Shown: in pieces, positions 1 through 32,598 of the stretch
How the letters are laid out: the number at the start of each line of letters is the position of its first letter
Position numbering within the stretch: the first letter of the stretch is position 1
Source of the DNA: Jimgerdemannia flammicorona
Lineage: Eukaryota
Assembly: GCA_003990765.1 (NCBI GenBank)
Contig: RBNJ01000304.1
Coordinates: forward strand, 1-33,610
DNA: 33,610 bases
Direction of reading: 5' to 3'
Notes under the pieces: generated by a model
Told to the model about the DNA's origin: nothing
The model's input: the letters and a program-made list of their open reading frames with translations, nothing else
Database searches by the model: none
Program-made: the position numbers and the translations under genes

Positions 1-1
1 T

Positions 2-1271: not shown

Positions 1272-1274
<3 letters not shown>

Positions 1275-1306: not shown

Positions 1307-1307
<1 letters not shown>

Positions 1308-2235: not shown

Positions 2236-3213
2236 TCAGTACACAGCCTTGCAGATGGGCGAAGCAGATGATGGTGAGTGTGAAAGTGTGTTCTGTATCA
2301 CGGATTTTTAAGGGTTGGTTTCGAATTTTGTGCGAGAAATCTAATTCTCCCCCTTCTTTTTTTATTTCTTTTAATTTTTTGTTGTGCGATCTATATCGAG
2401 CTCTCAAGTGTCTCCTGCATACAATTGTCTACGAGGACCACCCGGCCTCTCCACGACCCCGGAATAAAAAATACTGCCGATGAATATATTTTGGAACTGG
2501 TAGTCATTTGAATGTTCGTGCATGTATCTCGATATCTACACTTCAATGAATCAATGGTGATTACAAATACATAGTCAACATGTAATTTCCATAAAGTGTA
2601 ATAGATTTTATGTTTATTACAACCACCCATTCCAATAATACTCACATCGCACAAATGACCCACCCGATTCCTGTAATAATGGTGGCCGTAAGTGTGCTAG
2701 TAACCGGGCAGCTGGTGGGTAGGTAAGATAATGTGTAATTTCTTTTCGACTGAAACCCTTGTTCATTCATATCTGGCAGTAAAAATACTTTTAAATACAT
2801 ATATTTGTGATATAAAATGATTGGGATGACGTGATAAAGATATACGAACTGCTTTCACCTGCCGAGCGCAAGATTTTCACACTTGCGCTGCGTCGGCTCA
2901 AGTTTCGGATGAACAGGTGAACAGAACTTCCGCGACCACAGATGTCCTATGGAATGAATATATTTTGGAACATTTACGTCGGATACTATACATCCCAATA
3001 TGATCCCAAACAGACTCATCACAGTTTGGAATGGGCTGGAATGGCTTCTCATCATCATTTAAACGAAATGGTTTATTCACAATTAGACTGAAGTTTGTTA
3101 ACTGCTAAACTAGTGCCCCTCTCATTGCATGATATAGAAAATTGTGACGCTTCTCAAAATGATATTTGCAAAGTTGGCCTATCGCTGTAGCGATCCTGCC
3201 TTAATTTCCATCC

Positions 3214-7770: not shown

Positions 7771-8059
7771 GTTTATAAAGGCGAAATAAAGAGGTTTGGT
7801 TGTGATGGATGTGGTTTGACTGCGGCAATTTTACAGTGCATGATATCTAGTCACGACATAAACCTTAAATTTTCTCAGAGCAGCCACGTAGTGATTTTTT
7901 ATAATGACTGCAGTTCCGTCAAAATTCTGCCAGCATCCTCATCATCCAATTCTCTTGCCTGTATTATGTTGCTGAGATTTATCATCTTTACCCATTTGCC
8001 ATCTTTCTTTTGCCCTACATTATCTTCTCTTCACTATCCACTATTTTCTCTTAATTATT

Positions 8060-8450
8060 TTACTAAGATCTCTCTTCACTCACTGTCTTCACTGATATTC
8101 TCCTTTGCTATCTTTATGTCTTCACTGAGACCCCTCTTTGTCATCTTCACTATCTTTACTGATTTGTTATTTTTACTAATTTATAATTTTACTAATTTGC
8201 TATCTTTACTAATTTACTATTTTTACTACTATTTTTACTAATTTACTATCTTTTTAATATGTTATCTTTTAATATAATTCTTTTTATTATCTTTATAAAT
8301 ATTATTTTTACTAAAATTCTCTTTGCTATCTTTACTAATTAATTATTTTTACTAATTTACTATCTTTATTAATTAAATATTTTTATTAATTTTAATTTAT
8401 TATTTTACTAATTTATTATTTTTACTAATTTTCTGTGTTTTTACTAATTA
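8060..8450. repeat. Degenerate ~18-bp tandem array (TCTTCACTGATTTGCTA-like, decaying to TTTACTAATTTACTAT)
   Basis: Recurring tttactaat/ttcactgat units at about 18-nt spacing, with G+C content falling from left to right. Confidence 0.55.
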
Positions 8451-10652
8451 ATATCTCAACATATCACTATTAAAAAGATAATAATAAAATACTTTAAAAA
8501 TAAAAAATAAAAATAAAAATAAAAAAAAATAAAGTAACTAAAGATACTAAAGAGTAAAAAAAGATCTTAACTAAAAGTGAGATTGATGAAAAATTAGATA
8601 AAGAGAATATTTAATATATAAATAAAAAAGACTTTTAACTAAGATAAACTCTATTAAATCCATAAAGAAATATTATTTATATAAATATTATACTAATTTA
8701 TCTCAAGTTTCAAAATTTTACCAAAAAGTATAAAAAAGTAATCTAAGATCAAAAATCTAAATATTAATATATATGTATATATTATTTTTATTAAGAGCTT
8801 TAGAAATATCATTATAAATTACTATATAATTATCCATATTATATACATATCTTTATTAAGAGTTTTATTAAAGACTTTAGAGATTTTATTATTAATTTTT
8901 ATACTATTATCTATATTATATTTATTAGGAGTTTTATTAAAGATTTTCATTATTAAATTCTTTATTATTATTTATATTATCTTTATTAAACCCCTCCGAA
9001 ACTTTATTATTAATATATATATATATATCTATATTATTATATAAGCAGACTTAGCTAAGACTACTGATTAATAAATATAAAAATATCTCAAATATATATA
9101 ATTATATTAAATATAAGTATTATAAGTTTTAATATTAGTAAATATATTTAATATTTTATTTCAAATTGATATTATTAGATATTATAATAAGTTAGTAGAG
9201 AAATATACCAAGTTACTATCTAAATTAATTACTATAATTTAGCTATATACTATATTAGATATACTAGACAACTAGAACTACTCTATTATATCAATATATA
9301 TAAATAACTCAGATAGCTAAATAAGAGTACAAAGTATTCCTAGCTGATATATTATATTCAAATTCCAGATTAATATTTTGAGCTAGTATACTAAATCAGA
9401 ATTTGAGATATGTTTTTAATAGAAAAAGCTAAATATTGCCAAAAATAGTTAGATATATAACTATACTAGTATACCATATTTAGTCGTAGTCTCAAATATA
9501 TATAAATACTCTCTATACTGAGTATATTATAACCTTAGCTCCACTTTTTTCAAATATAAGAATAAAGCAGTATTCCTATTATAAGAAATCCTCAGATCTA
9601 ACTTGTTAATAATTCTGAGCCTAATTAACTTAAAATACAAGTACAGTTCTCTTACTAATATAAGAATTTAAAAACAATATCTGGACTCTGCTGCAATAGG
9701 TAATTGAAACTCAGTACTTCTTTAAGAACTCAGAACTTAGGGCTGAAAGTTGTCTTTAACTCTCAGTAATATATTAATTTTATCAATATATAGTTTTATT
9801 ATAACTTATTAATATACTCTATACTATAGTCAGAGATAAGTTCTTCAAGAGATCCATATCTGAGTATGAGACTATAGAGGAGGCTAATGATAGTTAGAGT
9901 ATCAGTAATTTCTATTGAAAATACTTTAGACCATTTAATTAGATATTTAATAAATACTAGAATATATATACTATTTTGAGTAATTATAACTACTAATAAA
10001 AAATTATATTGGAATTTCTATTGAAATTTCCAGAGACTTATAGATATATATAATAATTTATTATATCCTTCTCTTCTTTGCTTAAGTCTACTCAGTACTA
10101 AACTTTAAATATTCATTAAACTGAAAAGTAGTATACTAGACTACAAGTAAAACAATTTTACTCTATTATTTATCACTCAAATTAATAATTTTCTTCAGGA
10201 GATATTTTATAAAGATGGTCAAGGACTTGGGGTCAGATACAGAAAAGAATATAGAGTTATTTAGCAACTATATAAATATAGTTGTCAATAAAAAGATGAG
10301 CTTATTATTTGATAGTACTGAGGGTAGCTTGTTGATAGATAAGATATCCTATCTTATATATAGTACTTCTTAAGTTCTTATTAATAGAGAAAAGCCTGGA
10401 AATATTATATCTTTTTAAGATATTATTAGGCTTCATTTGGATCAGAATATCCAGAGATTCATATATTAACAAATTATAGTTTAGTGGAGTTTTATTGATA
10501 TTTAATTACTTTAAAGATAGTAGTAGTAATCTAATTCTTAATTTATTCTTAATGTTATTACTGAGTATTCATATTAAGAGAGTGAGTTATTTATATAGAA
10601 TTGTTTTAGAATATTTATACTTCTTTTTACTAGAGTGATTTAGAGATATAAC
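8450..10652. mobile_element. Highly AT-rich decayed transposon relics; 9460-9810 is a copy of the family at 31735-32080 in the opposite orientation
   Basis: Almost no CpG, TpA-rich, no ORFs. 9721 tttaagaactcagaacttag matches the reverse complement of 31801 cttaagttctgagttcttga, and the similarity extends about 350 bp. Confidence 0.55.
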
Positions 10653-11114
10653 TGTTGTAATGTAGCAGATGCTTACTCTTGAAAGTACGTTGGATTTCTG
10701 TATCTTGAAAACTTGACCGTTCTGACTCTTGCAGAGTCTCTTGAAGTTGTAGGGAAGGGTGGGTGAGTTCAAAGTATATCTGCCCACAGGCTTACTAGTT
10801 CCTTTACTATCTCTTTGCTTTTGAACTATTTCGATCTGAGGTTTATTCACTCAAAGATACTGGGTTATTTATACAAGTTTGCTAGCTATGAGAGGGTGGC
10901 TAAGTAATAAATGAGTCATTTGGACTTTGTCGAAACATTTGGACAATGTCTAAATGCTATACTAAATCGGAGTGTTCGATTTGGATAATGTCTAAAAATT
11001 TAGACAATGTCGAAATTGAGGACTGCTGACTATAAGGCTATACTACTTTGGGAATGGGTGTGATCAAGTATCTATTCCCTATTTCCTTCTTCCAAATTTG
11101 GCTATACCATCACA
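10653..11114 (-). repeat. 3' LTR (462 bp, TGT...ACA)
   Basis: Direct repeat of 16883-17344 with 23 mismatches. On the minus strand it has a TATA-like TATAAATA at ~10866-10873 and repeated TTGGACAATGTC-type motifs at 10919-11015. Confidence 0.95.
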
Positions 11115-11614
11115 ACTTCCTCCTGAATAGATGGTCTCATCTCTGAGGCATCTTATTCAAACTCTCAGGCTTCAACTGTCTGTATGGTTTTGTACTGCTC
11201 AATTTGCTACATGACCATCTCCCAATGATGTCTTCTCACTTTCTCAAAGTCAGTGGGGGTTACTCCTCTCAGGTGGTCTATCACTGCTTCATCTTCTTGG
11301 AATAACTTGTGGATCCTTTTGGTGATAGTGATCTGTGAGTGGGAGAGTTAATACTCGGCAATTCAGTCCTCTTTGGTCTTTGCTGGATCCTGATTGAGCA
11401 CCTGTCCAAGCTTGAAGTACTCTTGAAATTCTGCCCAATATTGATAGGCTCTAAAGTGTGAGATCTGAGAGAGATGAGTCTGTACAATACTCTGAATATT
11501 CTCATAGTATGCCTCTATGGTCGGAGGCTCAGTGGTATGCCATTGTCTTTTGATGGCTCTTTGGGCAGCACTAGTGATCTTGAGTGCCATCACAGTACTT
11601 TTGTTACTGGCCAT
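11030..11614 (-). pseudogene. Accessory ORF3 of the Gypsy element (env position, unknown function), extending into the 3' LTR
   Basis: One frame from ATG 11614, directly after IN, interrupted by stops that almost all revert to CGA/CAA/CAG. The translation includes QEYFKLGQVL...ITITKRIHKLF...IDHLRGVTPTDF. Confidence 0.7.
11115..11124 (-). promoter_or_regulatory. Polypurine tract
   Basis: Minus strand reads AGGAGGAAGT immediately before the 3' LTR TGTG. Confidence 0.75.
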
Positions 11615-14299
11615 GATATTTCTTGAGTCAGTTTTGGTGAATGGTGGTGGGGATTATTGTGCCTGAGGGTTTTTATAGCCAAAAGGTAGTCTCTTTTATA
11701 TCTTGCACAAGGTAAGGTCCTTCCCACTTGGGCTCCAGTTTTCGTGACCATGAAGCTTCTACCATATTCTGATACACTAGGACCTTGTCTCCTATCTTAA
11801 TAATCTCCAAGGGCTTGTGGGTCTTTTCCGCATTCCTCTGTTGTAGTGTCTGCACCTTGGTTATGTAATCCTCAGCCTTCTTTCTGATTTGGTGTAGTCT
11901 CCATATTTCCATGTCCACATGTTTCCATATAGCATCTCCATTGGATGATAGAGTTCCTTGAGAACATTCTTCTCCAAACAGCATTTCTGGAGGGGTAAAG
12001 TGGGTGCTTTGTGATTGGATGTCTCGGAGAGCAGATAATGCTATTGGTAGATAGTGATCCCAGTTCTTGTAGTTATTGCAGATCTTGGCAATAACATTCT
12101 TGAGAGTTTTGTTGGTCCTTTCTACTTGTCTGTTTCCTTGGGGGTGATAGGCTGTGGTCCAAATGTGCTGGATCTTGTACTTCTTGTAGAGAACCTCAAA
12201 GAGCTGGTTTATGAATTCTGTTCCTCTATCTGTAGTTACTTGTGTTGGGGTCTTGAACCGGCAGATGATTTCCTTGTGGAAGAAATTGGCAATTGACTGT
12301 GTATTGGCTTCTTTGAGGGGTCCTGCTTCTATCCACTTCGTAAAAAGGTCTATGATGACAATGATGTATCAGTTACCACTCAGGGTCAAGGGTAGAGGGC
12401 TGATTACATCCATTGCTATATGGCAAATGGTACTGGTTCTATGTGTGCTGATCCTGGGGCTTGATTCCATTGGTCTTGTTTCTGTTTCTGGCATTTGTCG
12501 CATGTCTTGACAAATTGTCTGATATCTTCCTCTATCCCTGGTCACCATATTGTTCTTCTTGCCTTGTCATATATATTTGTTCCTCCTAGATGGCCAAGTT
12601 CATGTACTGATTTCATCGCTTGCTCCTTCTTGTGTTCTGGTATGACCAGTAGTTTTCCTTTCTTCAGTATTTCTCCGTCAGTTTCGAATTGTTTCCATGT
12701 CCTGTTGATAATTGTTTGTATCTATTCTTCCAGATATTGGGGCATCTTTCGCTGTCCCAGGTGTATGATAGTTCCGTAGTAGAGCTCCTTATTCATGATT
12801 GATTTATTGGTTGGAGGTAGTTCGAGGTGTCTGTGAGAGAGCATCTGTATTGGAATTTGTTCTTCCAGGGTGGTATACGATGGTTACATCATAGGCTTGT
12901 AACTTCATTATCCATCTGGCATAGATTCCCTTGGGTTGTCCAGTTGTCAGTAGCCAGATGAGAGCTGAGTAGTCTGTCTGGATGATGAAGTGTCTTCCAG
13001 CCAGATAGTAGTGGAACTTTTCCACAGCCCAGATGACTGCAAGGCATTCCAACTTGTAGGACTCATATTCTTTTTCAGCCCCTTGGGTTCTGTGGCTAAG
13101 ATATGCAATGATATACTCTTTTTTGTCTTCTTTTTGAGCTAGGACTGCTCCTAGTCACTGTGCACTTGCATCCGTCTGAAGGATAAATTCTTGGATCCAA
13201 TTGGGTCGTCTGAGAATGGGTGCCTGAATTAGTCTGATCTTGAGTTTGTCAAATGCTTTTTATTGTCTGCCAGTCCACTGGAACTTGGTATCCTTCTTAT
13301 TGAGTTCATAGATTGGACCCATGATATTGGAGAATCCTCTAATAAATCTGTGATAGTAGGAGGCAAGTCCCATGAAAGCTTGGGCTTCTGTAACAGTAGT
13401 GGGCCTTGGGTATGCTGCTACTGCTTGTATTTTGAGAGGGTCCGTGTGTGTTCCATCTCAATTGATAATATGACCAAGATAGGAGATCTCAATTTCTGCA
13501 AACTTGCACTTCTTGAGTTTGATATAAAGGCCATATTGTCTTAGTCTCTCTATTATCTGCTGTATGTGCTGCAGATGTTCCTCAGGTGTCTTGCTGTAGA
13601 TGATTACATCATCGACATAGACCATCATCCATCTTCCCATGTCATGGCAGAAGATTTTGTTCATCATTCGCTGAAAGCTTGCTGGTGTATTGCACATTCT
13701 GAATGGCATTTGTAGGTAGATGTAGGTTCCGTCTGAGGTGATGAAGGCTGACTTTTCACTTGCCATTTCTGTAGGTCCGATTTGGTGAAATCCTGAGTAT
13801 AAGTCCAAGGTGCTGTAGTACTGTGCTTCATCTCCTAGTGTTATAAGGATGTCACTGATGAGCAGCAGTGGTTGGCAATCCTTCTTGGTAACTGCATTGA
13901 GCTTTTTGTAGTTGACATAGAGCCTTGGGGCAAATTCTCCAAGTTTGCTTCCTTTTTTCAGGGCTAGTACAACTGGTGAAGACCAGGGGCTGCTGGCTTC
14001 TTTGATGATGCCGGCTTCTTCCATCTGCTTGATTTCTTCTCTGAGCCATTCTTGGTAAGCTGGTGGGACAGGTCTTGCCTTCTGATAAATTGGTTTGGTG
14101 TCTCCGATATCTACCTCGTGATAGTAGTGTGGGGTCTTTCCCTTGATATCCTTGAAATCCGTGGCAAGGACATCCTCGAATTTGTAGAGTATTTTCTTGA
14201 GTTCCTCCTTGAGTCTCCGATGGTGTAACTGTGCTTGCTCATGTTTTCCTCCTTCTTATACTCAAGTTCGGTGATCTTGGTGCTAGCGAATACTCCTCT

Positions 14300-14715
14300 T
14301 CCTGTGGATCTGAATCCTTTCTTTCCTCTTTTCATTTCCTCCAGATTCTTGACTTCTATGATCCTTGGCTGTATGATTTGGAAGATCAACATCTGTGCCA
14401 ATCAGTCCTTCTTCTTGACTGGGAATGGAATTGTAGGATTGTGATTCCTAGCAATGAGTAGAATTTCTCCAATATAGTCTGAATCAATGACTCCTCCTTC
14501 GATTGTGATTTCACTTCTAGCCAGGCTGCTTCTAGTCTTGAGAATCCTGACATGATCCTTTGGGATGGTCATCTCTAGTCCAGTTGCGAGTAGGGTGGTT
14601 GTCTGGGGTTCGAGTACAGTTTCTTCTACTGTAGCAATGTCCATTCCGGCTGCATTTTCTGACTTATATTCTGGCAAGACTGCATCAGGGTGGATCTTTT
14701 GAATCTTGACCTTGA
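14300..14715 (-). pseudogene. dut: Trimeric dUTPase domain inside pol, between protease and RT
   Basis: Motifs AAGMDI, RSSLA, GGVIDSDYIGEI, LAQML and RGKKGFRSTG, with one in-frame TGA at 14404-14402. Confidence 0.92.
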
Positions 14716-16873
14716 TTTCTTCTTCATCATCACTGTCCTCCAGGAGGGCTGGTGGTTCATCATCTTCCTCCTTCTCTTCTTCTCTAATCTGTTTTTCGAG
14801 AGCTTTCTGCCTTCTTTCCTGGTAGATCTTCTTGGTTCCGATGGTGTACTGGTAGCAATCATTGACATGCTCTATATAGTACATTTTGATTCCATGAGGA
14901 CAGACTCCTTGTGGGGCATAGCTTTCTGCGATCTTCTTGTACCATTCTTCTTCACTCATCTATCCAACTTTCTTCTTCTTTGGAGTAGTCACCATATAAG
15001 CTTCCTCTTGCTCACTCTCTTCTTCCTCTATATCGGGCAGGACTCCTTTGTTGATGTTGATGGGAATTTGTATCTTCTGTCCCTAGTAGGTGATCTGCAT
15101 CTTCTGAGCATTGAGATTGATTACCGCCTTGGCTTTGTGAAGCCATTGATTGCCGATGAGGATGTCATAGTTGGTGGCATTGGTTATGATTACATCTACT
15201 GGGATTGTTGCTCCTCTGATCTTGATGGGAATATCTCGGATCTATCCCAGAGGTGTGGCTCTTGTGCCATTGGCTGTGGCGAATACTAGCTTAGTTGCTT
15301 CTTCCACGTCCCAACCTAGGCAGTCTGCTGCCTTCTTACTGAGGAGACATCCTCCTGCTCCCATATCAATAATGGCTTCAAAGACTCGATCCTCAATTTG
15401 GCATGTTGCATAAGCAGAGGTTTTGCAATTATCCTCACTTTCTTCTCCTGAGTCCTCTTGAACATTATTGGCCTCAGTTATCTTTCATCCTTGTTTCTTG
15501 GTTGTTTTGGTAAGTCCAAATCTCATTTGCTGTCTGAATGTTGGGATTTCTGCAAGCTGACCAAAGGTTGCATTGACCTTTTGTTGACTGAGATTCTTAA
15601 AGATATCATACTTGAAGGTCTTGGTCTTGTGAAGCTTCTTTTATTTTTCTCCTTCACTGGCTGGAGTGGTTCCTCGGATGATATCCTGAACTGCTTGCTC
15701 TAGCTTGATATCTTGATTCATCTCTTCAGCTTGGCTTTCTGTGTCAGTTTCTATTTGTTTTTCCACTGGGTTCTTCTTGGGTCTTCCTGGCAGTCTCTTG
15801 TAGGGTTCTTTGCAAGCATCCTTCTTGGTGGTCTGAGCAGGATAGGCCTCCCATTCCTCTTCATTGGATTCTCTAATTTCTTCAAAGGTGATTATATTGG
15901 CCTGCTTCTTGTTTCATGTGGCATTGTTTGGTTGAGCCTTGTATTTGGTTTTACTCATATATTCATAGGAGTAGTGGCCTTCTTCTCCACAGCTGTAGCA
16001 GGTACCTTTCTTCTTATCTGAGGTAGCAGCAAACTTCTGAACAGGGCGGCGATCTCTTTCTCAGATTTCCTTTACCACATCCCCCAGGTGGGCAGTCATT
16101 TCAGCAAACCTTTTGGCGAGTTCCTCCATAGGGTCACTGTTCTTTTGCTGCTCTGTAGCTTTTGACTGAGGTGTGTTTCGATTGATCATTGTGGTGGGGA
16201 TCATACTAGTTGCCTTGGGTGCCTTAATTCTGACTCCTGTAACTCTCTCCATTGTATGGTCTTGTGGGTGTCTAGCTATCCAGTATCGCTGAGCATAGGT
16301 GACCTTCTGTGGCAGATCCAGAATTACTAGTGATGAGCAGATGGCCATGGCTATTTCTGGATGGACTCCTTTCATGAAGGTTGCTTTGGCTACTTGATCT
16401 CAGATGGCAGTAGCATAATCTGCAAGAATTATCTGATATCAAATTCTGGTATAGAATGTGTTTGGATTCTCACTCATTTCTTGGCATATTGTGTTGAGCT
16501 GATCCTTCAGGGCTTGCTTGATCTCATCTGTGTAATATGTATTTCGGAGCCAGGTCTTCTGTGCTGTCAGTATGGCATCTGCATCATTTTCTGCATGGGT
16601 TGCGACTGTGAATGCTGCTCTGGCAGGGCCTCATAGACTGAAAGGCATGAGGGCTACTTGCTGTGCTGCTGTCAGAGTCCTTATAGCAGCATACTGCTCG
16701 AAATCATCAATGAAGGTGATGATTAATTCATCTGAGGTATATCCATGGAATACTGGCAGTCTCATATCCATCTTGTCTGGGTATTGGGGCTTGGTTTATA
16801 TGGTTGTTCAGATAGTGGTAGTTGTTCGTTGTTCAGCTTGAAAGTGAGGGATTCATCTTGAATCACCAGTCAA

Positions 16874-16882
16874 TGGGCACTA
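16874..16882 (-). promoter_or_regulatory. Degenerate primer-binding site
   Basis: TAGTGCCCA follows the 5' LTR and is two transitions away from a TGGCGCCCA tRNA-complementary PBS. Confidence 0.55.
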
Positions 16883-17344
16883 AGTTATAATGTAGCAGAT
16901 GCTTACTCTTAAAAGTACATTGGATTTCTGTATCTTGAAAACTTGACCATTCTGACTCTCGCAGAGTCTCTTGAAGTTGTAGGGGAGGGTGGGTGAGTTC
17001 GAAGTGTATCTGCCTGCAGGCTTACTAGTTCCTTTGCTATCTCTTTGCTTTTGAACTATTTCGATCTGAGGTTTATTCACTCAAAGATACTGGGTTATTT
17101 ATATAAGTTTGCTAGCTATGAGAGGGTGGCTAAGTAATAAATGAGTCATTTGGACTTTGTCGAAACATTTGGACAATGTCTAAATGCTATACTAAATCAG
17201 AGTGTTCAATTTGGATAATGTCTAAAAATTTAGACAATGTTGAAATTGAGGACTGCTGACTATAAGGCTATACTACTTTGGGAATGGGTGCGATCAAGTG
17301 TCAATTCCTTATTTTCTTCTTTCAAATTTGGCTGTACCATCACA
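16883..17344 (-). repeat. 5' LTR (462 bp)
   Basis: Direct repeat of 10653-11114. Confidence 0.95.
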
Positions 17345-19950: not shown

Positions 19951-20664
19951 TGAGTACTTGATAATTAATATATATTGTGATGGCTGATCCGAATTAGTAA
20001 TATGAAACAGGGGAATTAGACATTTGATTGCAATACCTGAATCTGATTCCCAATATAGCTTAGCCTCATAAATAGCAGCCATATTCTGCAAAGTACCGAA
20101 ACTTTAATGTTTGCAAAGATTTAGGAGATATTAGAATCTTCACAATCAGTGAAATCTTAGCAGAAGTAGAGGAGGAAGAAGGCCCAGCAGGAGCCAAGGG
20201 AGCGAACCCAGAGCGAGTGTCAAAGCGAATAGAAGACATGTGGAAAGGCGTGTATAAGGGGGACAAACAAAGAATGTAACCGAAATTGCATCAGCCATTT
20301 ATTGCCACGTACAAACATGGTCCTTATATACAAAATACGACGTCCCAAAAGGGAGGACATGCCACAACTCGGGGCGAACTGAATTAGGAACCATATGACC
20401 GCTGGAGATAGGCAGAGATAAAGAGGGAGCCAATCCCAGTTGCAGGATAAAAATCACAAACAAACACAAACAAAACAAATCCAAATCGAGATTAAAAAAC
20501 ATCTGCAGACCCTGGAGGGGTGAGCGCAAGTGAGGGGTGAGGCCAAAATAAAGCGAGCTGCAGCGAGCCTGAGTGAAGCAAGGGGCCGAAGGCAGCAGAG
20601 GGGAGCAGAGTAAGACCAAGACCTTGGAGCGAGGGCGAGACCCCGGAGGGGGCAAGGATGTTTT

Positions 20665-22749
20665 TTAATCCTCTCCGGCAGAACCGGAGGCACCAGAAGG
20701 TGACGAAAACGCAAAACGAGAGTGATAGATTGAAGAAGAAACAGAAGAAAGATGCAAATGAGCAATCAGAGGGCATCGGGAAAGAGATGAAAGTCCATGG
20801 CGCGAAAGAGAAGAGCATAGGACAGTATCAGGGTGTTGAGTGACCCAGCGAGCATGATCAAATGGTACAACGAGAATCAGGGGTGGGAAAGAAGAGGGGG
20901 TACAGAGAGGGTAAGGGGGGAGAGAGGGAAGGGAGGGGGGGTAAAGGGGAGAGAGGAGGGAAGAGCGAACAACAGACCATTCAACAGAAGCAAGTAGATC
21001 GCGAACAATAGAAATAGGGTAGGCACGATGATGGACCACGAAGTTGCCAAGAACCCGAACAGCAGACACCCAATCAGAACGACGGGAGCAGCACAATGCA
21101 AGATGACAAGCCTCACTATGAACACATTCAAGAAGAGTGCGACGAGGATGGTTGGACAAGAAGTCAGAGAACTGTTGGGAATGGGGAAAGCAGGAATAAA
21201 CAACAGTTCGGAAGGGAGAAAGACAAATAGAAAGGTCCAAAAAAGGAATACTAGTCATACCGCACACCCAAGTAATAGAATGATGGGGAGGGTAGATGCC
21301 CAGGAACACACTAGGGATATCAATGCCAGCAACAGCGAAGACAATAAAGTCATCAATGTATCGGCAAAAGAAGATATCTCCAGCCCGGAATGCAATGGAA
21401 AGAGGTGAAGTAATATCATGTAACACATGCAATTCATGGGCCAGGCCAACAAGGTTGGCAAGGGTGGGGGCACAATTCATACCCATGGCAATACCAGAAG
21501 TCTGGTGAAAGGAGCCAAGGGCCGACTCAAAATAATTCAAGCCGCAGACGAGGAGCATAAGCTCAACAATGGAAGCCAGCAAAACTGGGGAATCCAAAGG
21601 AAAAATCAAGGAACCCAAGAAGCGAAGGCAGTCATCAATCTCATCAAAACGAATAGCAGTATAGAAGGAAGAGAAGTCACCAGAGGCCAAATGGGAAAAA
21701 CGGTGAACAGGCACAATGGTGGAGCAGAGAAGGGCGAGCTCCTGAGTATCATGAAGAATAGTATACTCAGGCCCAAGATGGTGTTGTAAGAGAGCCATCC
21801 AGGAGAGAAAGAAGCGAGATAACCACTTTGAAATCTCGGTGGTAGGAGAACTGTACACAGCCGTAATAGGACGCCAAACCAAAGTAGGCTTGTGAACTTT
21901 AGGAAGAGCATAGAAAACTGGAAGAGAAATATCCGGGGAGGACAAAGAGTCCTGGAAGAAGTTAAAAATGGGGTTCGCGAATGGGGAGTCCGAAAGTGAC
22001 CTAGCGTGAGCCAGAGAAACCCAAAGAAGAGTGAGAACCTCATTCAATCCAAGAGCACTAGGCTCGTAAGCCATGGCTCGAAGGAGGGCAGAAAGGCCAT
22101 CAAGATAGAGCAACTTAGGAATAAGTGCAAAACCCTGATTCTTATCAGTGACTGTGAGCAAATGCATAGGCAATTGCTTGATCGATTTAAGTGTGGTATG
22201 CATGGCACAGTCCGAAACCAAGCAAGAGTGAGCTCATCCAGGAACGGACAGTGAGCAGGCCATGTCAAGGAATACACAGTGTGAAGAGACATTGGGAGGG
22301 GAGACTCAATCGCTGGGAACAAAATAGCGAGAGGGCATCTCACCACGATCTTGAAAGAAAATGGCAAGGTCAAGAGCATGACGAAAACGTGTTAGACGAG
22401 CCAGATCAGTGAAGGAGAATTGTGAGGGAGTCGCAGGAAAAACAAAGCAAGGACCCAAGGATAAGGCAAAGACTTGAAGGGGAGAAAGGGGGCAGTCAGC
22501 CGAAGAAAAAGGAGGAGACAAAAGTATTCCAAGAGAAGAATAAACCCGAAAATTTGGGACAAGCAACTGGGAAAGGCGAAGGGGGGACAACATGAGGAAC
22601 CACTCAGGGCACACCAGAAGCGACGACGGAATCCGAGAAGGGACAGGGACAACGGGGGAGAACCACGCCAGGGAGAAGTTTAAGAGCGGGAGGCCTTCCC
22701 CTTCCCTCTGACTTTTTTTGAAGGTGGCAAGCCCGACGAATGGGAGCAC
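20665..22749 (-). pseudogene. PLE reverse transcriptase ORF2, copy A; 518-aa open core, TGA stops at 22308-22306 and 22236-22234
   Basis: ORFs 22749-22306 and 22221-20665 are in one frame and carry the RT motifs listed for copy A. Confidence 0.85.
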
Positions 22750-23896
22750 ATCCCATCAGAGTGCCAGACCTTGCGGTTACAGGCTTTCGTGCAGCCCTTA
22801 TATTCAGGGGCATGGGTGGAGGAGGCGGAGGAGGAACCGGCGGAGGAGGCCAAAGGCGAGCAAGCAGCTGAAGGGGCAGCAGTGCGAGGAACACCACCAT
22901 GGGGACAGATGGACTTGGCCGGGTGCCAGTAGGCATGGTGGAGGCGGCTGGAGCAGACAGCGCAAGGCCAGGCCCCAACGGGGTGAGAACCAAGTTGGCG
23001 GCCATACTTGGGGGCAGGGGGAATGGAGGAGGAAGCCTTGGCGGGGGAGGGGGACCAGGAAGAGGCCGACGAAGCCTGGTTGGGCTTGGCGGGGGTCTTG
23101 GCGGGGTCTTGGAGGGGGCCTTGGCGGCGGCGGCGGCGAAGGAACGAACCTCAGCATGAGCAGCAACATGAGCCTTGGTGCAGATGGCCTCGGAGACCAA
23201 AACCTCAGGAGAGGCAGGCAGGGGAGCAGTGGCGGTGGCGCAAGCAGCAGCGGCAGCACGTGACATTTCCTGCTCGTGAAGGCAAGTGACAAAAGAGGTG
23301 CCGGCGAGGAGGAAGCGACGCACAGCATTGATGTCGGTGGCAACAGAAGGGACATCCTGGATGGCGAAGCCACAGAAGGGGGCAGCATCTGAAAGATGAG
23401 AGGAGGCGAAGGCCATGAAAGCGGCACAGGCATGTTGGAAGGAGGTGGAGGTGGCAGCAGCAGAAGCAGCGGTGGCATCAGCGGCGGCAAGTTTGGCGGC
23501 GGCAGTAGCAGCACGAACCTCTTCAGAGAGGGCTTGGCGGCGGGCCTCAGGGAGAATGGAGTAGCGGACAGTGAGCGGAGCGACGATGTCGACATCATGG
23601 CGGAGATGAGCCTCCTTGGCAGAGAGGGCAAGGACCGACCGGAACTGAGAGAGGAGTGGATGACCAGAAGGATGAAGGTCCAAGGGGAGGGAAAGGATGG
23701 CAGAAGAGACATAGGTCTCGAAGGAGACAGTGGCGGAGGTGAAGGCAGGGGGAGGAGGAGGAGGAAGTACCTCATCCATGAGCTCGTCAACGAGGATGGA
23801 GGCCCCGAGGGCAGGCGGTACAGCAGAGGAGGAAGAAGGCCCAGTGGGAGCCAAGGGAGTGAACCCAGAGCCAGTGTCAAAGTGAACGGAAGACAT
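22680..23896 (-). pseudogene. PLE ORF1, copy A; 1-bp deletion near 23103
   Basis: Aligns with 24566-25795 until the PAKT 12-bp repeats, where one base is missing. Confidence 0.75.
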
Positions 23897-24486
23897 GTAG
23901 AAAGGTGTGTATAAGGGGGACGAACAAAGAACGTAACCGAAATTGCATCAGCCATTTATTGCCACATACAAACGCAGTCCTTATATACAAAATACGACGT
24001 CCCAAAAGAGAGGACGCGCCACAACTCAGGGTGAACCGAATTAGGAACCACATGATCGCCAGAGATAGGCAGAGATAAAGGGGAAGCCAATCCCAGTTGT
24101 AGGATAAAAATCTCAAACAAACACAAACAAAACAAATCCAAATCGAGATTAAAAAACATCCGCAGACCCTGGAGGGGTGAGCATGAGTGAGGGGTGAGGC
24201 CGAAATGGAGCAAGCTGCAGCGAGCCCGAGCGAAGCGAGGGGCCGAAGGCAGCAGAGGGGAGCGGAGTAAGGCCGAGACCCCGGAGCGAGCGCGAGACTC
24301 CAGAGGGGGCAAGGATGTTTTTTAATCTCGATTTGGATTTGTTTTGTTTGTGTTTGTTTGTGATTTTTATTCTGTAACTGGGATTGGCTCCCCCTTTATC
24401 TCTGCCTATCTCCGGCAGTCATGTGGTTCCTAATTCGGTTCGCCCCGAGTTGTGGCACGTCCTCCCTTTTGGGACGTCGTATTTTG

Positions 24487-24519
24487 TATATAAGGACTGC
24501 ATTTGTACGTGGCAATAAA
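24487..24519 (+). promoter_or_regulatory. TATA-like box and AATAAA within the pseudo-LTR
   Basis: TATATAAG at 24487-24494 and AATAAA at 24514-24519, conserved in all four pLTR copies, about 50-80 nt upstream of ORF1. Confidence 0.4.
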
Positions 24520-24565
24520 CGGCTGATGCAATTTCGGTTACGTTCTTTGTTCGTCCCCCTTATAC

Positions 24566-25795
24566 ATGTCTTTCCACATGTCTTCCGTTCGCTTTGACAC
24601 TGGCTCTGGATTCGCTCCCTTGGCTCCCGCTGGGCCTTCTTCCTCCTCTGCTATACTGCCTGCCCTCGGGGCCTCTGTCCTCGTCGACGAGCTCATGGAT
24701 GAGGTACTTCCTCCTCCTCCTCCCCCTGCCTTCACCCCCACCACTGTCTCCTTCGAGACCTATGTCTCTTCTGCCATCCTTTCCCTCCCCTTGGACCTTC
24801 GTCCTTCTGATCGTCCGCTCCTCTCTCAGTTCCGGTCAGTCCTTGCCCTCTCTGCCAAGGAGGCTCGTCTCTGCCGTGACGTCGACGTCATCGCTCTGCC
24901 CACTGTCCGCTACTCCGTTCTCTCTGAGGCCCGCCGCCAAGCCCTCTCTGAAGAGGTTCATGCCACTACTGCCGCCGCCAAACTCGCTACCACTGACACT
25001 ACCGCTGCTTCCACCGCCGCCACCTCCACCTCCTTCCAACGTGCCTGTGCCACTTTTGTGGCCTTCGCCTCCTCTCGTCTTTCGAATGCCGCCCCCTTCT
25101 ATGGCTTCACCATCCAGGATGTCCCTTCTGTTGCCACTAACATCAATGCTGTGTGTCGCTTCCTCCTCGCCAGCACCTCTTTTGTCGCTCACCTTCACGA
25201 GCAGGAAATGTCATGTGCTGCCACTGCTGCTTGCGCCGCCGCCACTGCTCTCCTGCCCGCCTCTCCTGAGGTTTCGGTCTCCGAGGCCATCCGCGCCGAG
25301 GCTTGTGCTGCTGCTCATGCCGAGGTTCATTCCTTCGCCACCGCCACCGCCAAGGCCCCCTCCAAGACCCCTGCCAAGACCCCCACCAAGCCCAACCAGA
25401 CTTCGTCGGCCTCTTCCCGGTCCCCCTCCCCCACCAAGGCTTCCTCCTCCATTCCCCCTGCCCCCAAGCATGGCCGCCAACTTGGTTCTCGCCCCGTCGG
25501 GGCCTGGCCTTGCGCTGTCTGCTCCAGCCGCCTCCATCGTGCCTACTGGCACCCGGCCAAGTCCGTCTGTCCCCATGGTGGTGTTCCTCATGCTACTGCC
25601 CCTTCGGCTGCTCGCTCGCCTTTAGCCTCCTCCGCCGGTTCCTCCTCCGCCTCCTCCACCCATGCCCCTGAATGTAAGGGCTGCATGAAAGCCTGTGGCT
25701 GCAAGGTCTGGCACTCTGATGGGGTGTGCTCCCATTCGTCGGGCTCGCCACCTTCAAAAAAAGTCAGAGGGAAGGGGAAGGCCTCCCGCTCTTAA
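24566..25795 (+). CDS. PLE ORF1, 409 aa: Pro/Ala-rich helical region plus two Cys/His clusters
   Basis: Open frame containing CAVCSSRLHRAYWHPAKSVCPH and HAPECKGCMKACGCKVWHSDGVCSH. The ATG shared by all copies is at 24578. Confidence 0.7.
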   Translation: MSFHMSSVRFDTGSGFAPLAPAGPSSSSAILPALGASVLVDELMDEVLPPPPPPAFTPTTVSFETYVSSAILSLPLDLRPSDRPLLSQFRSVLALSAKEARLCRDVDVIALPTVRYSVLSEARRQALSEEVHATTAAAKLATTDTTAASTAATSTSFQRACATFVAFASSRLSNAAPFYGFTIQDVPSVATNINAVCRFLLASTSFVAHLHEQEMSCAATAACAAATALLPASPEVSVSEAIRAEACAAAHAEVHSFATATAKAPSKTPAKTPTKPNQTSSASSRSPSPTKASSSIPPAPKHGRQLGSRPVGAWPCAVCSSRLHRAYWHPAKSVCPHGGVPHATAPSAARSPLASSAGSSSASSTHAPECKGCMKACGCKVWHSDGVCSHSSGSPPSKKVRGKGKASRS

Positions 25796-27810
25796 ACTTC
25801 CCCCCGGCGTGGTTCTCCCTTGGTGTCCCCGTCTCTTCTCGGATTCTGTTGTCGCTTCTGGTGTGCCCTGAGTGGTTCCTCATGTTGTCCCCCCTTCGCC
25901 TTTCCCAGTTGCTTGTCCCGAATTTTCGGGTTTATTCTTCTCTTGGAACACTTTTGTCTCCTCCTTTTTCTTCGGCTGACTGCCCCCTTTCTCCCCTTCA
26001 AGTCTTTGCCTTATCCTTGGGTCCTCACTTTGTTTTTCCTGCGACTCCCTCACAATTCTCCTTCACTGATCCGGCTTGTCTAACACGTTTTCGTCGTGCT
26101 CTTGACCTTGCTATTTTCTTTCAAGATCGTGGTGAGATGCCCTCTCGCTATTTTGTTTCCAGCGATTGGGTCCCTCCTCCCAATGTCTCTTCACACTGCG
26201 TATTCCTCAACATGGCCTACTCACTGTCCATTCCTGGATGAGCTCGCTCTTGCTTGGTTTTGGACTGTGCCATGCGTACTACACTTAAATCGGTCAAGCA
26301 ATTGCCTATGCATTTGCTCACAGTCACTGATAAGAATCAGGGTTTTGCACTTATTCCTAAGTCACTCTACCTTGATGGCCTTTCTGCCCTCCTTCGAGCC
26401 ATGGCTTACGAGCCTAGTGCTCTTGGATTGGACGAGGTTCTCACTCTTCTTTGGGTTTCTCTGGCTCACACTAGGTCGCTTTCGGACTCCCCATTCGTGA
26501 ACTCCATTTTTAACTCCTTCCAGGACTCTTTGTCCTCCCCGGATATTTCTCTTCTGGTTTTCTATGCTCTTCCTAAAGTTCACAAGCCTACTTTGGCTTG
26601 GCGTCCTATTACGGCTATATATAGTTCTCCTACCACCGAGATTTCGAAGTGGTTATCCCACTTCTTTCTCTCCTGGATGGCTCTCTTACAACACTGTCTT
26701 GGGCCTGAGTATACTATTCTTCGTGATACTCAGGAGCTCGCCCTTCTCTGCTCCACCATTGTGCCTGTTCACCATTTTTCCCATTTGGCCTCTGGTGACT
26801 TCTCTTCCTTCTATACTGCTATTCGTTTTGATGAGATTGATGACTGCCTTCACTTCTTGGGTTCCTTGGTTTTTCCTTTGGATTCCCCAGTTTCGCTGAC
26901 TTCTATTGTTGAACTTACGCTCCTCGTCTGCGGCTCGAATTATTTTGAGTCGGCCCTTGGCTCCTTTCACCAGACTTCTGGTATTGCCATGGGTACGAAT
27001 TGTGCCCCCACCCTTGCCAACCTTGTTGGCCTGGCCTATGAATTGTGTGTGTTACGTGATATTACTTCACCTCTTTCCATTGCATTCTGGGCTGGGGATA
27101 TCTTCTTTCGCCGATACATTGATGACTTTATTGTCTTCGCTGTTGCTGGCATTGATATCCCTAGTGTGTTCCTGGGCATCTACCCTTCCCATCATTCTAT
27201 TACTTGGGTGTGCGGTACGACTAATATTCCTTTTTTGGACCTTTCTATTTCTCTTTCTCCCTTCCGAACTGTTGTTTATTCCCACTTTCCCCATTCCCAA
27301 CAGTTCCCTGACTTCTTGTCCAACCATCCTTGTCACACTCTTCTTGAATGTATTCGTGGTGAGGCTCGTCATCTTGCATTGTGCTGCTCCTGTCATTCTG
27401 ATTGGGTGTCTGCTGTTCGGGTTCTTGGCAACTTCGTGGTCCATCGTCATGCCTACCCTATTTCTATCGTTTGCGATCTGCTTGCTTCTGTTGAATGGTC
27501 TGTTGTTCGCTCTTTCCTCCTCTCTCCCCTTTACCCCCCCTCCCTTCCCTCTCTCCCCCCTTACCCTCTCCATACCCCCTCTTCTTTCCCACCCCCGATT
27601 CTCGTCGTACCATTTGATCGTGCTTGCTGGGTCACTCAATGCCCTGATACCGTCCTACACTCTTCTCTTTCATGCCATGGACTTTCATCTCTTTCCCGAT
27701 GCCCTCTGATTGCTCGTTCGTGTCTTCCTTCTGTTTCTTCTTCAATCCATCACTCTCGTTTTGTGTTTTCATCACCTTCTGGTACCTCTGGTTCTGCCGG
27801 AGAGGATTAA
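25726..27810 (+). pseudogene. PLE reverse transcriptase ORF2, copy B; -1 frame relative to ORF1, single internal TGA at 26239-26241
   Basis: ORFs 25726-26241 and 26254-27810 are in the same frame. RRYIDD is intact. Confidence 0.85.
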
Positions 27811-28307
27811 AAAACATCCTTGCCCCCTCCGGGGTCTTGCGCTCGCTCTGGGGTCTCGGCCTTACTCCGCTCCCCTCCGCTGCCTTTGGCCCCTCGCTTC
27901 ACTCAGGCTCGCTGCAGCTTGCTCCATTTCGGCCTCACCCCTTGCTCGCGCTCACCCCTCTGGGGTCTGTGGATGTTTTTTAATCTCAATTTGGATTTGT
28001 TTTGTTTGTGTTTGTTTGTGATTTTTATCCTACAACTGGGATTGGCTCCCCCTTTATCTCCGCTTATCTCCGGCGGTCATGTGGTTCCTAATTCGGTTCG
28101 CCCCAAGTTGTGGTGCATCCTCCCTTTTGGGACGTCATATTTTGTATATAAGGACTGCATTTGTACATGGCAATAAATGGCTGATGCAATTTCGGTTCTA
28201 TTCTTTGTTCATCCCCCTTATACATGCCTTTCCACATGTCTTCCGTTCGCTTTGACACTGGCTCTGGGTTCGCTCCCTTGGCTCCTGCTGGGCCTTCTTT
28301 CTCCTCT

Positions 28308-29505
28308 TCATTGATGATTTTGAGCAGTATGCTGCTGTGAGGACTCTGACAGCAGTACAGCAAGTAGCCCTCATGCCCTTCAGCCTACAAGGTCCTGCCA
28401 GAGCAGCATTCACAGCTGCAACCCATGCAGGAAATGATGCCGATGCTATACTGACAGCACAGAAGACCTGGCTCCAAAATACATATTATACAGATCAGCT
28501 CAATACAATATACTAAGGAATGAGTGAGGATCCAAACACATTCTATATCAGAATTCGATATCAGATAATCCTCATGGATTATGCTGCTGCTATCCAAGAT
28601 CAAGTAGCTGAAGCAACCTTTATGAAAGGAGTTTACCCAGAGATAGCCATGGCTATCTGTTCATCACTAGTAGTCTTGGATCTGTCACAGAAGGTCATCA
28701 GACACCAACAAGACTATACAATAGAAAGAGTCACAGGAGTCAGAATCGAAACACCCAAGGCAACCAGTGTGATTCCTACTACAATGATCAATCAAAATAT
28801 ACCTCAGCCAAAAACTACAGAGCAGCAAAAGAACAGTGACCCTATGGAAGAACTTGCTAAGAGGTTTGCTGAAATGACCACTCACCTGGGAGACGTGGTA
28901 AAAGAAATCCAAAGAAGAAACTGCCAACCAGTTCAGAAGTTTGTTGCCACCTCAGATAAGAAGAAAGATACCTACTATATCTGTGGAGAAGAAGACCACT
29001 ACTCCTATGAATATATGAGTGAAACCAAGCACAAGACTCAATCAAGCAATGCTATATGAAACAGAGAGCAGGCCAATATAATTACCTTCAAGGAAATTGG
29101 AGATTCTGATGAAGAAGAATGGGAGGCCTATCCTGCTCAGACTATCAAGAAGGATGTTCGCAAGGAACCCTACAAGAGATCACCAGGAAGACCCAAAAAG
29201 AACCCAGTAGAAAAGCAGATGGAAACAGCCACCGAAAGCCAAGCTGAAGAGATGGATTAAGATATAGAGCTGGAGCAAGTAGTTTAAGATATTATCCAAG
29301 GAACTATCCCAGCCAGCAAAGGAGAAAAAGAAAAGAAACTTTGCAAGATCAAGACTTTCAAGTATAATATCTTCAAGGATCTTAGCCAACAAAAGATCAA
29401 TGCAACCTTTGGTCAGCTTGCAGAAAACCCAATATTCAGATAACAAATGAGGTTTGGACTTGCTGAAACAACCAAGGAGTAAGGATGGAAGATAACTGAG
29501 GCTAA
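28308..29505 (+). mobile_element. Truncated gag fragment of the same dUTPase-Gypsy family
   Basis: Matches the reverse complement of ~16713-15470 (NSDPMEELAKRFAEM, zinc-knuckle remnant YYICGEEDHYSYEY), with small deletions. Confidence 0.88.
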
Positions 29506-29509
29506 ATAT

Positions 29510-32087
29510 AGATGATCTTCAATATCTTAGTTTTCTCCTTGATCTTGTTAGAGTACTTTTCTGTTAATCCAAAAGCTTTTCCTCCTCTATCAAAAGATGA
29601 TAGTTTATTTATTTCTTCAACTTCAAGATTATTACATATTATCTCAATAAAGGTTTAAGTAATTTATTTTTCATATATAATTTTGATAGTCTTTTATCTG
29701 GTATTATATAGTAGAACTTTGATCTTACTTTTGAATTCTTGATCTATAACTACTCTAGCTATATAGAGTCTCTTTTCTTTAGTCAGACTACTTCTTTCTG
29801 CAAAGCAGATATAGGTACCTTTGGGGACTTCTATTCTAATATCTATGCTAATAATTACTTGCTTATTTGGTTCAATAATTACTTCTATATTAAAGTAGAG
29901 ATTATAACTAGTATTAAATTTATCTACTTTGTCTGGGATCTTTACAGCAATGTAGAATCTCTTGATCTTGATTTTCTCAGAGGTTTCTTTGAGATTATCT
30001 TCTATTATAGTAATGGTATGTAAGCAAAATAGTTCTTTATTTATATTAGTCTTTTTGTCAGAATATTTGTAAGACTTATATCTTCTCTTTTTACTTATCA
30101 GATAGTTTCTTAAATCTACCTTATGGTCTTGAGGACCTATTCTAAAATTTATACTTTTTCTTAAATTGGCATTATTTGTCTTCTTTGTTATTTCTATTAT
30201 CTCACTATAAGAATAGTATATACTCTAATAATAGCTTATCCTAAATACTATTACTCATATAAGTAATTATAGAGTTGTTCTTATTTATAGATTTTTTCTA
30301 ATAATTATTTAGGGGTAATATTGAAGAAATAGATAGCTTGTATTTTATTTACAATCCTTTTATAGTATTTAGAAAGATTTCCAGTCTTATATTGAATACT
30401 TTAAGATTTTCTTTTCTATTATTATAGAATTATAAGTTCTTTACCTTAGTTCAGGCTTTAATAATATAAGCTGAGCTGTAGAACTATTAGATGATTAGTT
30501 TCTTTAAATCTATAGTTGCTGAATAGACTTATAGTCAGAGCAATCATTATCTCCTTCACTTGTATTAATTTTAGCATAGGTTTCTCAGGTAAGAGAGTAT
30601 ACTAGCAGATTATACTACTACTAGACAGCTGTACCTATAAAGTGTATAGCAACTTTGTCTACTTATGAGCTTACAGTTATATAGAGATCTTTAATCTCAT
30701 TATACTCATTATTATTGAGAGAACTGTCTGGATTCTAATTGTCATTTCAACTATTGATATAATAATTAGTATCAATGTATCTTATAAATATTACTACTTA
30801 GTCTACTTTATCTTTAAATTAGATGAGACAGAGGTCTTTTATAGAGTTGTTGTTCAATACTGAGGTAAAGGACTTGAGTGAGTATAGCTACTTAATTAGC
30901 TAATATTATTATCTTATCATCTGCTAATATTATTCTACTATTTCTATTATCTATTTAGTAAGATTATTGAGATTCTTCTTCTGTTGTTATGATATGTTAA
31001 TCATAGTTTGAAGTTAATTCTTCTATAATATTACTGAGATAAGTGAGCTTGTAGACTAGTGGTCTTGATAGAATGACTATTGGATCTGCTATAATTTTTA
31101 ATAGACTTAATGACCTCAGTAATAGTTTTATAATAGTACTAAGATCACCAATATCAGATTAAGGTATTTTTACAATTATTCTCCTAGATCTGAATGATAT
31201 GGTAGAGACTTTACTAGATCTGGTAGCATATAGTTCTTATTGCTGAATTATTCTTATCTATATATAGAAAATTCAGTAATAGAAGTGGAATTTCTTTTAA
31301 TAGATATAGTATCCCTTGTAGTTCAGAAAGACATTAGCTTTATAATAGCAATTATTAGAGAGAGGGTTTAGAAAATATTTGCTTATAGCCTCAATATTTA
31401 TATTTCTTATAGAAGTGACTACTGACTAGCTTATTGAATTTCTCTTTAAGTTTAGAAGTATAGAAAACTTCCTTATTGAGTATAAGGAAAGTATTGAATA
31501 CTTCTTGAATGATTTCATTGTTGAGTTTATTATACTTCTCTTGACTGATATAGGGTTTAGTCTACTTGATAATAATTCTGTTAAATTCTTCAGCTTGAGT
31601 CTAAGGAATATTCAGAGTATAGATACTTTTAGACTATCACTGACAATATTAGCAATATTGATCAGTTCTGATTATCTATAGTAGATTCTTAAAAGAAGAT
31701 TGCTTGTAAGTGGAGAGTAACTTCCACTTCTACTAAATTATAATAAAACTATATACTAATAGAATTAATATATTACAGAGAGTTAAAGGTAACTTTTGGT
31801 CTTAAGTTCTGAGTTCTTGAGGAAGTACTGAGTTCCAATTATCTATTGTAGTAGAGTTCAGATATTACTTTTAGATTCTTATATTAGTGAGAGAGCTGTG
31901 CTTATATTCTAAGTTAATTAGGTTTAAAATTGTTAATAAGTCAGATATGAGGATTTCTTATAATATAAATACTACTTTATTCTTATATTTAGGGCAAGTG
32001 GAGCTGATGTTACAATACACTCAATATAGAGAGTATTTTTTATATATTTGAGGCTATAACTAAATATAGTATACTAGATATATCTAT
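29510..32087 (-). mobile_element. AT-rich decayed element, possibly a non-LTR (LINE-like) RT
   Basis: Minus-strand remnants resemble NYRPI (~31070-31100), LADD (~30916-30927) and RY(L/I)G-like FIRYID (~30772-30789). All are very degenerate. Confidence 0.4.
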
Positions 32088-32401: not shown

Positions 32402-32598
32402 GCTGGCATTATTTAGTACCACATCAAAATACCGGTGCTGGAACAATTTCACGTCACCTGAGAATACCGGTGCTGGCATTATCCAGTGTTACATGAGAAT
32501 ACCGGTGCTGGCATTATCCAGTGTTACATGAGAATACCGGTGCTGGCATTATCCAGTGTTATATGAGAATACCGGTGCTGGCATTATCCAGTATAACA
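32402..32598. repeat. 35-bp tandem repeat, ~5.6 copies (GCTGGCATTATCCAGTGTTACATGAGAATACCGGT)
   Basis: Units start at 32402, 32437, 32472, 32507, 32542 and 32577; the first two are diverged. Confidence 0.92.

Follow-up and report, generated by a model that had tools for sequence, protein, structure and literature searches.

The question raised by this locus is how a 181-bp cassette, closed by its own short inverted repeat, comes to lie at the exact hinge of an inverted retroelement dimer, and what it does there. Within the window (the whole stretch of 33,610 nucleotides that was analysed), positions 20165-28307 form a giant palindrome, each half of which is one copy of a retroelement, the left on the minus strand and the right on the plus strand. 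The outer arms of the palindrome (20168-23106 and 25369-28307) are 94% complementary and the inner arms (23103-24161 and 24313-25371) 91% complementary, the latter lying 151 nt apart. The reading that we favour, to which we give about an even chance, is that the inverted junction arose by pairing at the cassette during reverse transcription. An earlier note on this DNA had proposed instead that it functions as folded single-stranded cDNA, by way of exceptionally stable GNA-triloop mini-hairpins that would serve as a terminator, primer or origin. Below, we describe the anatomy of the element and its identity, the cassette and its hinge, and the explanations that compete for them.

The unit is 3,658 bp long. 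In the right copy, on the plus strand, the order is a U region, ORF1, ORF2, the 181-bp cassette and the U region again, to the end of the element at 28307. The right upstream pseudo-LTR (24313-24652) begins at a 15-bp arm that it shares with the centre cassette and extends 87 nt into ORF1. ORF1 (24527-25795, first ATG at 24566) encodes a low-complexity product that is Cys/His-rich near its end and belongs to no Pfam family; ORF2 (25720-27810), which is in a different frame and overlaps ORF1 by 76 nt, encodes an N-terminal region of the kind found in Penelope-like elements (PLEs), a DKN motif, a reverse transcriptase (RT) and a thumb, with no GIY-YIG domain. The right cassette (27805-27985, sense strand plus) carries the RT stop codon TAA (27808-27810) in its 5' arm, and is followed by the remainder of the 3' pseudo-LTR (27986-28307). 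TATA-like boxes were found by eye in the right copy at 24487-24495, upstream, and at 28145-28153, in the 3' pseudo-LTR. The left copy lies entirely on the minus strand. Its ORF1 (22604-23947) is Ala/Ser/Pro-rich and again without a Pfam family; its ORF2 (20665-22752; RVT_1 E 2.1e-5) has the same N-terminal PLE region with DKN, RT and thumb, interrupted by two in-frame stops. The left cassette (20490-20670), 3' of the RT ORF, is 88% identical to the right one and has one arm that matches at 14 of 15 positions; beyond it lies the 3' pseudo-LTR remainder (20165-20489), consisting of the U region with a TATA-like box and the first ~87 nt of ORF1, so that the 3' end of the left copy is at about 20165-20168. 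On the upstream side of the left copy the pseudo-LTR remainder (U region, 23822-24146, minus strand) leads to the centre cassette (24147-24327), which is oriented as in the left copy and forms the hinge of the palindrome.

In each copy, the last 340-506 bp are repeated at the 5' side with a spacing of 3657-3658, giving the direct repeats 24313-24612 with 27971-28270 (93%) and 20165-20464 with 23822-24121 (90%). The 3' end of the element falls 87 nt inside ORF1 (24566-24652; 28224-28307), and the junction with the flanking LTR retrotransposon is at 28306-28308, where homology to another copy of that retrotransposon begins. Both copies of the element are decayed: they differ by 280 substitutions, 274 of them transitions and mostly at CpG, and by one internal 1-nt indel. 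An in-frame TGA in ORF2 (26239-26241; left mirror within 22222-22248) is common to the two, and ORF2 upstream of it is still homologous to the N-termini of relatives; the shared stop reflects either parallel CGA-to-TGA decay or inheritance from the source. Purines are extremely scarce on the sense strand (A 13%, G 19.5%, C 33%, T 34%), and the encoded protein is rich in Leu, Ser, Pro and Phe, whereas P0001, its 48%-identical relative, is more ordinary in residue make-up. Since transitions cannot create a purine-poor bias, the bias must be older than the decay of the copies. A frame that stays open for 121 codons past the RT stop was discarded as meaningless; all frames of a purine-poor strand are long, and this one matches no family.

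To judge from its sequence, the element is a PLE without an endonuclease, and the similarity of its RT bears out the assignment to PLEs in the earlier note. ORF2 has a weak match to RVT_1; an RT search gave 59 matches, many of them with PF26215/PF28514, and one (P0033) was confirmed to carry both RVT_1 and GIY-YIG. The closest match, P0001, is a 406-residue fragment with 48% identity (E 1e-127). Ahead of the RT, both copies contain the DKN motif as TVTDKNQGFALIPK, aligned to TDKNLG of P0060 and P0061; such a motif is described as typical of PLEs in the portion of PMC13159263 compared here. For GIY-YIG, there was no Pfam match at E<=1 in 13 ORFs of the element, a motif scan of all forward frames gave one stop-containing chance match and nothing else, and the domain was found in 0/20 of the nearest representatives scanned. 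An exhaustive RT search returned 2959 matches at E<=1e-3 but only four of them reached E<=1e-30, and the lineage, which has neither endonuclease nor hammerhead, is thus one that is rarely sampled.

By architecture, the element resembles Coprina. Coprina and Athena are the endonuclease-less PLE clades named in the relevant parts of PMC8557442, and Coprina-1_Alen is described, in the section of PMC13159263 that treats it, as having two ORFs and flanking direct repeats. The likeness extends to an RT with DKN and thumb but no GIY-YIG, together with the two ORFs and direct repeats of Coprina-1_Alen. The element differs from these clades in being interstitial, with its 3' end abutting a retrotransposon, in having no hammerhead core, and in the absence from the window of the telomeric repeat (TTAGGG)2 at up to one mismatch, the single repeat type scanned. 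It also lacks the GIY-YIG domain that is C- or N-terminal in the canonical endonuclease-bearing PLEs (Penelope/Poseidon, Neptune, Nematis and Naiad/Chlamys).

The three 181-bp cassettes had been reported by the earlier note at 20490-20670, 24147-24327 and 27805-27985, each bounded by an inverted repeat of 15 bp, and we find them just so. Each is the first 181 bp of a pseudo-LTR, taken as the stretch from the RT stop to the start of the next ORF. The right copy is in sense on the plus strand, and the centre and left copies on the minus strand; 28 of 181 columns vary among the three, with a mean column identity of 95%. The 15-mer GGATGTTTTTTAATC, allowing up to two mismatches, occurs six times in the window against 0.17 expected (none of 100 shuffles reaches six). 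All six matches are at cassette ends; five arms are perfect and that at 20490-20504 has one mismatch. It should be noted that CpG, the main mutable site in this DNA, is absent from the arms, and their perfect conservation is therefore uninformative on selection. The claim that one arm overlaps the RT stop codon stands for the right and left copies, in which the ORF ends at 27810 and 20665, and not for the centre copy, which no ORF enters.

The arms of the palindrome are flush with the 15-bp arms of the centre cassette (24147-24161 and 24313-24327) and continue unbroken from them, so that the sole unique spacer of the palindrome is the 151-bp interior of that cassette. At their outer ends, the two palindrome arms finish at one and the same element coordinate (20168 versus 28307). 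In a unit of 3,658 bp, only a few positions would place a junction flush against an existing inverted repeat, and it is therefore very unlikely, as far as one locus can tell, that the junction fell on such a repeat by chance. Both arms end at the element's own 3' end, where reverse transcription would start, and on the right this end is set independently by the homology of the flank to another retrotransposon copy from 28306-28308. Such an end argues for a retrotransposition event rather than a later folding back of DNA. To this extent, the palindrome anatomy supports the suggestion of the earlier note that the cassette acts as a folded or self-paired nucleic acid.

How might such a junction arise? 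From the observed anatomy and element identity we infer a pairing during reverse transcription, in one of two variants. The cassette, as an imperfect palindrome closed by the 15-bp inverted repeat, would form a stand-alone hairpin in transcript or cDNA, and no other part of the unit is markedly self-complementary. Two cDNAs made from one template have the same polarity, and could therefore pair only where the sequence is self-complementary, namely at the 15-nt arms. In the first variant, same-polarity cDNAs primed from the two sides of a break would anneal at the cassette; in the second, a single cDNA would fold back on itself there. Extension from the 15-nt pairing would, in either case, yield two full copies with their 3' ends outward and one cassette interior as the spacer. 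In vitro, the purified anole PLE protein cleaves its target on both strands and extends each of them (Frangieh et al. 2024, PMC11167929). For this reason we lean towards two-ended priming, with annealing and then extension taking place at the cassette, and with fold-back of a single cDNA as a close variant. Priming of cDNA from both target strands would give outward 3' ends as here. A further parallel is that reverse transcription of the anole element starts inside the 5' part of the ORF, at 111-118 nt compared with 87 nt in the present element (PMC11167929). However, the anole element possesses an endonuclease and a hammerhead, and the main text of PMC11167929 describes no palindromic joining site.

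The arrangement should also be seen against what is already known of PLEs. An inverted, 5'-truncated copy beside the upstream pseudo-LTR is frequent in these elements, according to the passages on their structure in Craig et al. 2021 (PMC8557442), and the combination of a pseudo-LTR with an inverted partner is, as such, known architecture: the same partial tandem is seen, with the inverted partner at the 5' side and the 3' ends outward. As compared with those passages, the inverted partner here is full length, and the junction lies exactly at the 15-bp repeat that closes the 181-bp cassette. The complex structures of PLEs are there attributed to the GIY-YIG endonuclease, and the word 'hairpin' is absent from the main text of that paper. 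In the literature compared, which was a selection and not an exhaustive search, a palindromic cassette starting from the RT stop, an exact hinge and the joint lack of endonuclease and hammerhead are undescribed. The locus bears on how PLEs integrate and on why tandem and inverted terminal repeats are so frequent among them, in that the inverted arrangement occurs here in an element without an endonuclease and has its junction on a short inverted repeat. It is thus a mechanistic clue that the junction can arise when two cDNAs pair with each other, or one with itself, and it adds a lineage without endonuclease and without hammerhead to those known. In L1 twin priming, an inversion arises within a single copy. 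The two-ended priming is alike, but the outcome is not two full copies as found here.

The explanation that competes best with pairing during reverse transcription, although we think it unlikely, is that the cassette is chiefly an RNA hairpin of the transcript, beginning at the stop codon, and that its position at the hinge is a by-product. Such a hairpin might serve in RT binding and cis-preference, in translation termination, or in the processing of longer-than-unit transcripts in place of a hammerhead. The predicted fold is stable. The sense RNA of the cassette has a predicted energy of -70.7 kcal/mol (z -6.2 against shuffles), with z from -5.6 to -6.2 across the right and centre copies, and in a 631-nt context the hairpin stays a separate domain in both the minimum-energy and the centroid structures. 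The antisense DNA is comparable (-37.6 kcal/mol, z -5.0). Whichever strand is folded, and whether with RNA or with DNA parameters, the minimum-energy structure is a single long hairpin with interruptions. It has a 15-bp stem, which in the RNA would contain the stop codon, and then short G/C helices between internal loops that are pyrimidine-pyrimidine on the sense strand and purine-purine on the antisense strand. A separate 7-bp hairpin is predicted in the RNA at 27786-27802, formed by the last codons of the RT ORF immediately before the cassette.

Nearly all of the excess stability of the cassette, however, stems from the 15-bp arms. Without them, the sense-RNA interior is no better than its shuffles, or barely so (z +1.4 to -1.8 in the natural copies, -1.5 after restoration of CpG); it stands out solely on the antisense strand with RNA parameters (z -3.9 for the right copy and -5.2 for the restored sequence). 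A separate test found moderate palindromic symmetry of the interior in the right, centre and restored sequences (z 3.0-3.8, equalled by one or two of 500 shuffles); this symmetry is lost in the most decayed copy. The three near-identical copies show no covariation, in that 0/51 pairs change on both sides, and paired cells amount to 93.5% across the copies, the same as in the shuffle control. Moreover, a role in RNA leaves the flush fit of the palindrome to the 15-bp arms unexplained.

One attraction of a role in RNA is the place of the cassette. It was noted earlier to sit where PLEs usually carry a hammerhead, and it does occupy the ORF-to-ORF (pseudo-LTR) interval that contains hammerhead candidates in relatives. 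In the treatment of clades in PMC8557442, a hammerhead is present in the pseudo-LTR of all PLE clades except Naiads and most Chlamys. Hammerheads whose helix III is large are described for fungal PLEs in the relevant part of PMC4209133. A search of Rfam found no known ribozyme or other family that matches the cassette: at gathering score the window gave no match, and at E<=10 none was found that touches the cassette or lies in the pseudo-LTR. Rfam also found no hammerhead at gathering score in 20 distant PLE loci, nor in 10 at E<=1. A scan of both strands for the ribozyme core (CUGANGA followed by a helix II of 4 bp or more and by GAAA), which included a positive control, gave hammerhead candidates in 29 of 77 distant PLE loci (L001-L077), with 33 of 34 matches on the sense strand; in 18 loci the candidate lies 82-2301 nt past the ORF stop (median 425). 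Given that Rfam was blank in 30 distant loci whereas the scan was positive in 29/77, Rfam is treated as insensitive and the motif scan carries the weight; the Rfam models seem blind to these minimal PLE hammerheads. The same scan found no hammerhead in the element or in the window, on either strand. The sole CTGANGA of the element lies in ORF1, without GAAA within 90 nt, and a hammerhead of the fungal type with a large helix III was likewise absent from the element. In comparison with the PLE hammerheads of Cervera and de la Pena 2014 (in the part of PMC4209133 that places them), the cassette falls in the same interval, from ORF stop to next ORF, but has no core. On sequence grounds it occupies the ribozyme interval of its relatives, yet is probably not a ribozyme itself.

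A stronger form of pairing during reverse transcription is that the cassette has been selected as a replacement for ribozyme and endonuclease, being a built-in cDNA pairing site with which the RT bridges the ends of a break in a PLE lineage that has neither. This we regard as tentative, and rather doubtful. If it were true, head-to-head dimers and short fold-backs of the form U-cassette-U' would be regular products of integration. Of the 77 distant loci, 54 extend 300 nt or further beyond the ORF stop. In none of these does the region near the stop contain a perfect inverted repeat of 11 nt or longer; the longest is 10 nt, which is within the background of each locus. The cassette is therefore lineage-specific rather than part of a general PLE mechanism. 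Large inverted repeats were found in two of the 77 (L023 and L033), neither with a comparable hinge.

The proposal of GNA mini-hairpins in single-stranded cDNA fares less well, and we consider it improbable. The individual motifs are where they had been reported, with GCGAAGC at 24230-24236, GCCGAAGGC at 24242-24250 and CCCCGGAGGGG at 20641-20651. In its favour, mini-hairpins of the form x-C-GNA-G-x' number four on the antisense strand after restoration of CpG, where 0.77 would be expected (P 0.004), and the sense strand has none; GCGAAGC forms the apical triloop of the minimum-energy DNA fold in the centre copy; and motifs of the CCCCGGAGGGG type, at both cassette ends, give five matches at up to one mismatch, every one within the cassettes. 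However, this form of motif was defined after sight of the sequence, and the natural antisense copies contain one, two and two of them (P 0.38, 0.09 and 0.03). GCGAAGC occurs in one of the three cassettes, and its four copies in the window, against 1.47 expected, are equalled by 5 of 100 shuffles. The mini-hairpins are not conserved among the three cassettes, and the predicted fold is, in place of a set of them, the single long hairpin driven by the 15-bp arms. Interior DNA folds of the natural copies are no better than dinucleotide shuffles (z -1.55 to +0.27), although the DNA energy model may undervalue GNA loops, and folding of the CpG-restored consensus, which had been suggested as a check, left the interior no more stable than shuffles (z -0.45 and +0.58). 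The other check suggested, of conservation and covariation, is a weak test; it too came out against the proposal, both in the distant relatives, none of which has a comparable feature at the stop, and in the paired positions. Nothing was found in support of a role as origin, primer or terminator. Analogies had also been drawn with parvoviral terminal hairpins and the a1/a2 repeats of retrons, and like these the cassette is self-complementary DNA able to self-prime, with its GNA motifs on the cDNA strand. The analogies fail on position, in that the cassette is internal to the unit rather than at the terminus of a linear single-stranded genome, and there is no sign of rolling-hairpin replication or branched msDNA.

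A further possibility, which appears equally improbable, is a DNA event after insertion: a single copy would have been broken by its upstream cassette, after which the resected strand folded back at the 15-bp repeat and the element was copied from there. This would yield the same hinge geometry, and the formation of large palindromes by way of short inverted repeats is established in other systems. It would require, however, that copying halt exactly at the 3' end of the element (20168 and 28307, with target sequence from 28306-28308), and the repeats listed include no inverted pair between the left flank and the right. Least probable of all, and in our view very doubtful, is a foreign origin, in which a miniature inverted-repeat or fold-back element would have entered an ancestral copy at its 3' end and been passed on with it, as might be suggested by 181 bp with perfect 15-bp terminal inverted repeats that have no counterpart at this place in the 54 distant PLEs; the cassette has no target-site duplication at its flanks and no copy or fragment in the window beyond its three element positions, one of its arms provides the RT stop codon, and its pyrimidine-rich sense strand matches the remainder of the element.

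The surroundings of the dimer may bear on how it entered its site. The head-to-head dimer is interstitial, within a second, inverted copy of an LTR retrotransposon that bears a dUTPase. The other copy of this retrotransposon, at 10654-17344, encodes dUTPase, RT and integrase between 461-bp LTRs that are 95% identical, and the closest named relatives of its RT are from Rhizophagus irregularis, at 40-46% identity; a segment at 29694-30224 is grouped with it. These relatives hint that the host is an early-diverging fungus, and a fungal host would be a further likeness to the endonuclease-less clades. The right flank of the dimer (28308-29505) is 83% identical to 15468-16713 over 1246 nt. The left flank (19975-20078) has a weak BLAST match to the start of the LTR (11023-11115; 64% over 104 nt, E 8e-4), and a transition-tolerant alignment of this flank to the retrotransposon target was rejected as spurious. 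If the weak match is real, about 0.44 kb of target would be missing at the insertion site, and a loss of this size would suit insertion at a break rather than at a staggered cut.

Relatives that might show the cassette in other settings were sought more widely. A metagenome scan with the RT alignment produced the 77 loci mentioned above, all of them 22-30% identical and none of them close kin; a scan of viral contigs found no relative, and a search of sequencing runs listed no RNA run with the sequence of the window. One soil-metagenome run (X1) contains 0.13 of the sequence words. Its contigs include many diverged copies, on 354 contigs and mostly with transition differences, and the element family is thus multi-copy and diverged elsewhere. 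Two opposite-strand joints occur in X1, at 20366/28116 and 22718/25730, on one contig each at a depth of 2-2.7. They could be further inverted junctions of the family, or artefacts of assembly; if real, they would mean that inverted junctions form away from the cassette too.

The window is eukaryotic, and its remainder is a mixture of genic and repetitive DNA. Intron-split pieces of a USP7-like gene, with matches to MATH, UCH and USP7_ICP0_bdg, are seen as exon-like ORFs at 3954-7550 on the minus strand, together with a BTB-like ORF for which a search found no longer relatives; this host gene adjoins the repeat-rich region. The ratio of observed to expected CpG is 0.98 in the genic part (1-8000), 0.61-0.67 in the element and 0.06-0.24 in the AT-rich flanks and old repeats, a pattern that looks like methylation-type decay aimed at repeats. 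The window also contains very AT-rich stretches. As minor features, 32402-32592 and 8151-8452 contain a tandem repeat with a 35-bp unit (5.5 copies) and an AT-rich minisatellite of the TTTACTAA type.
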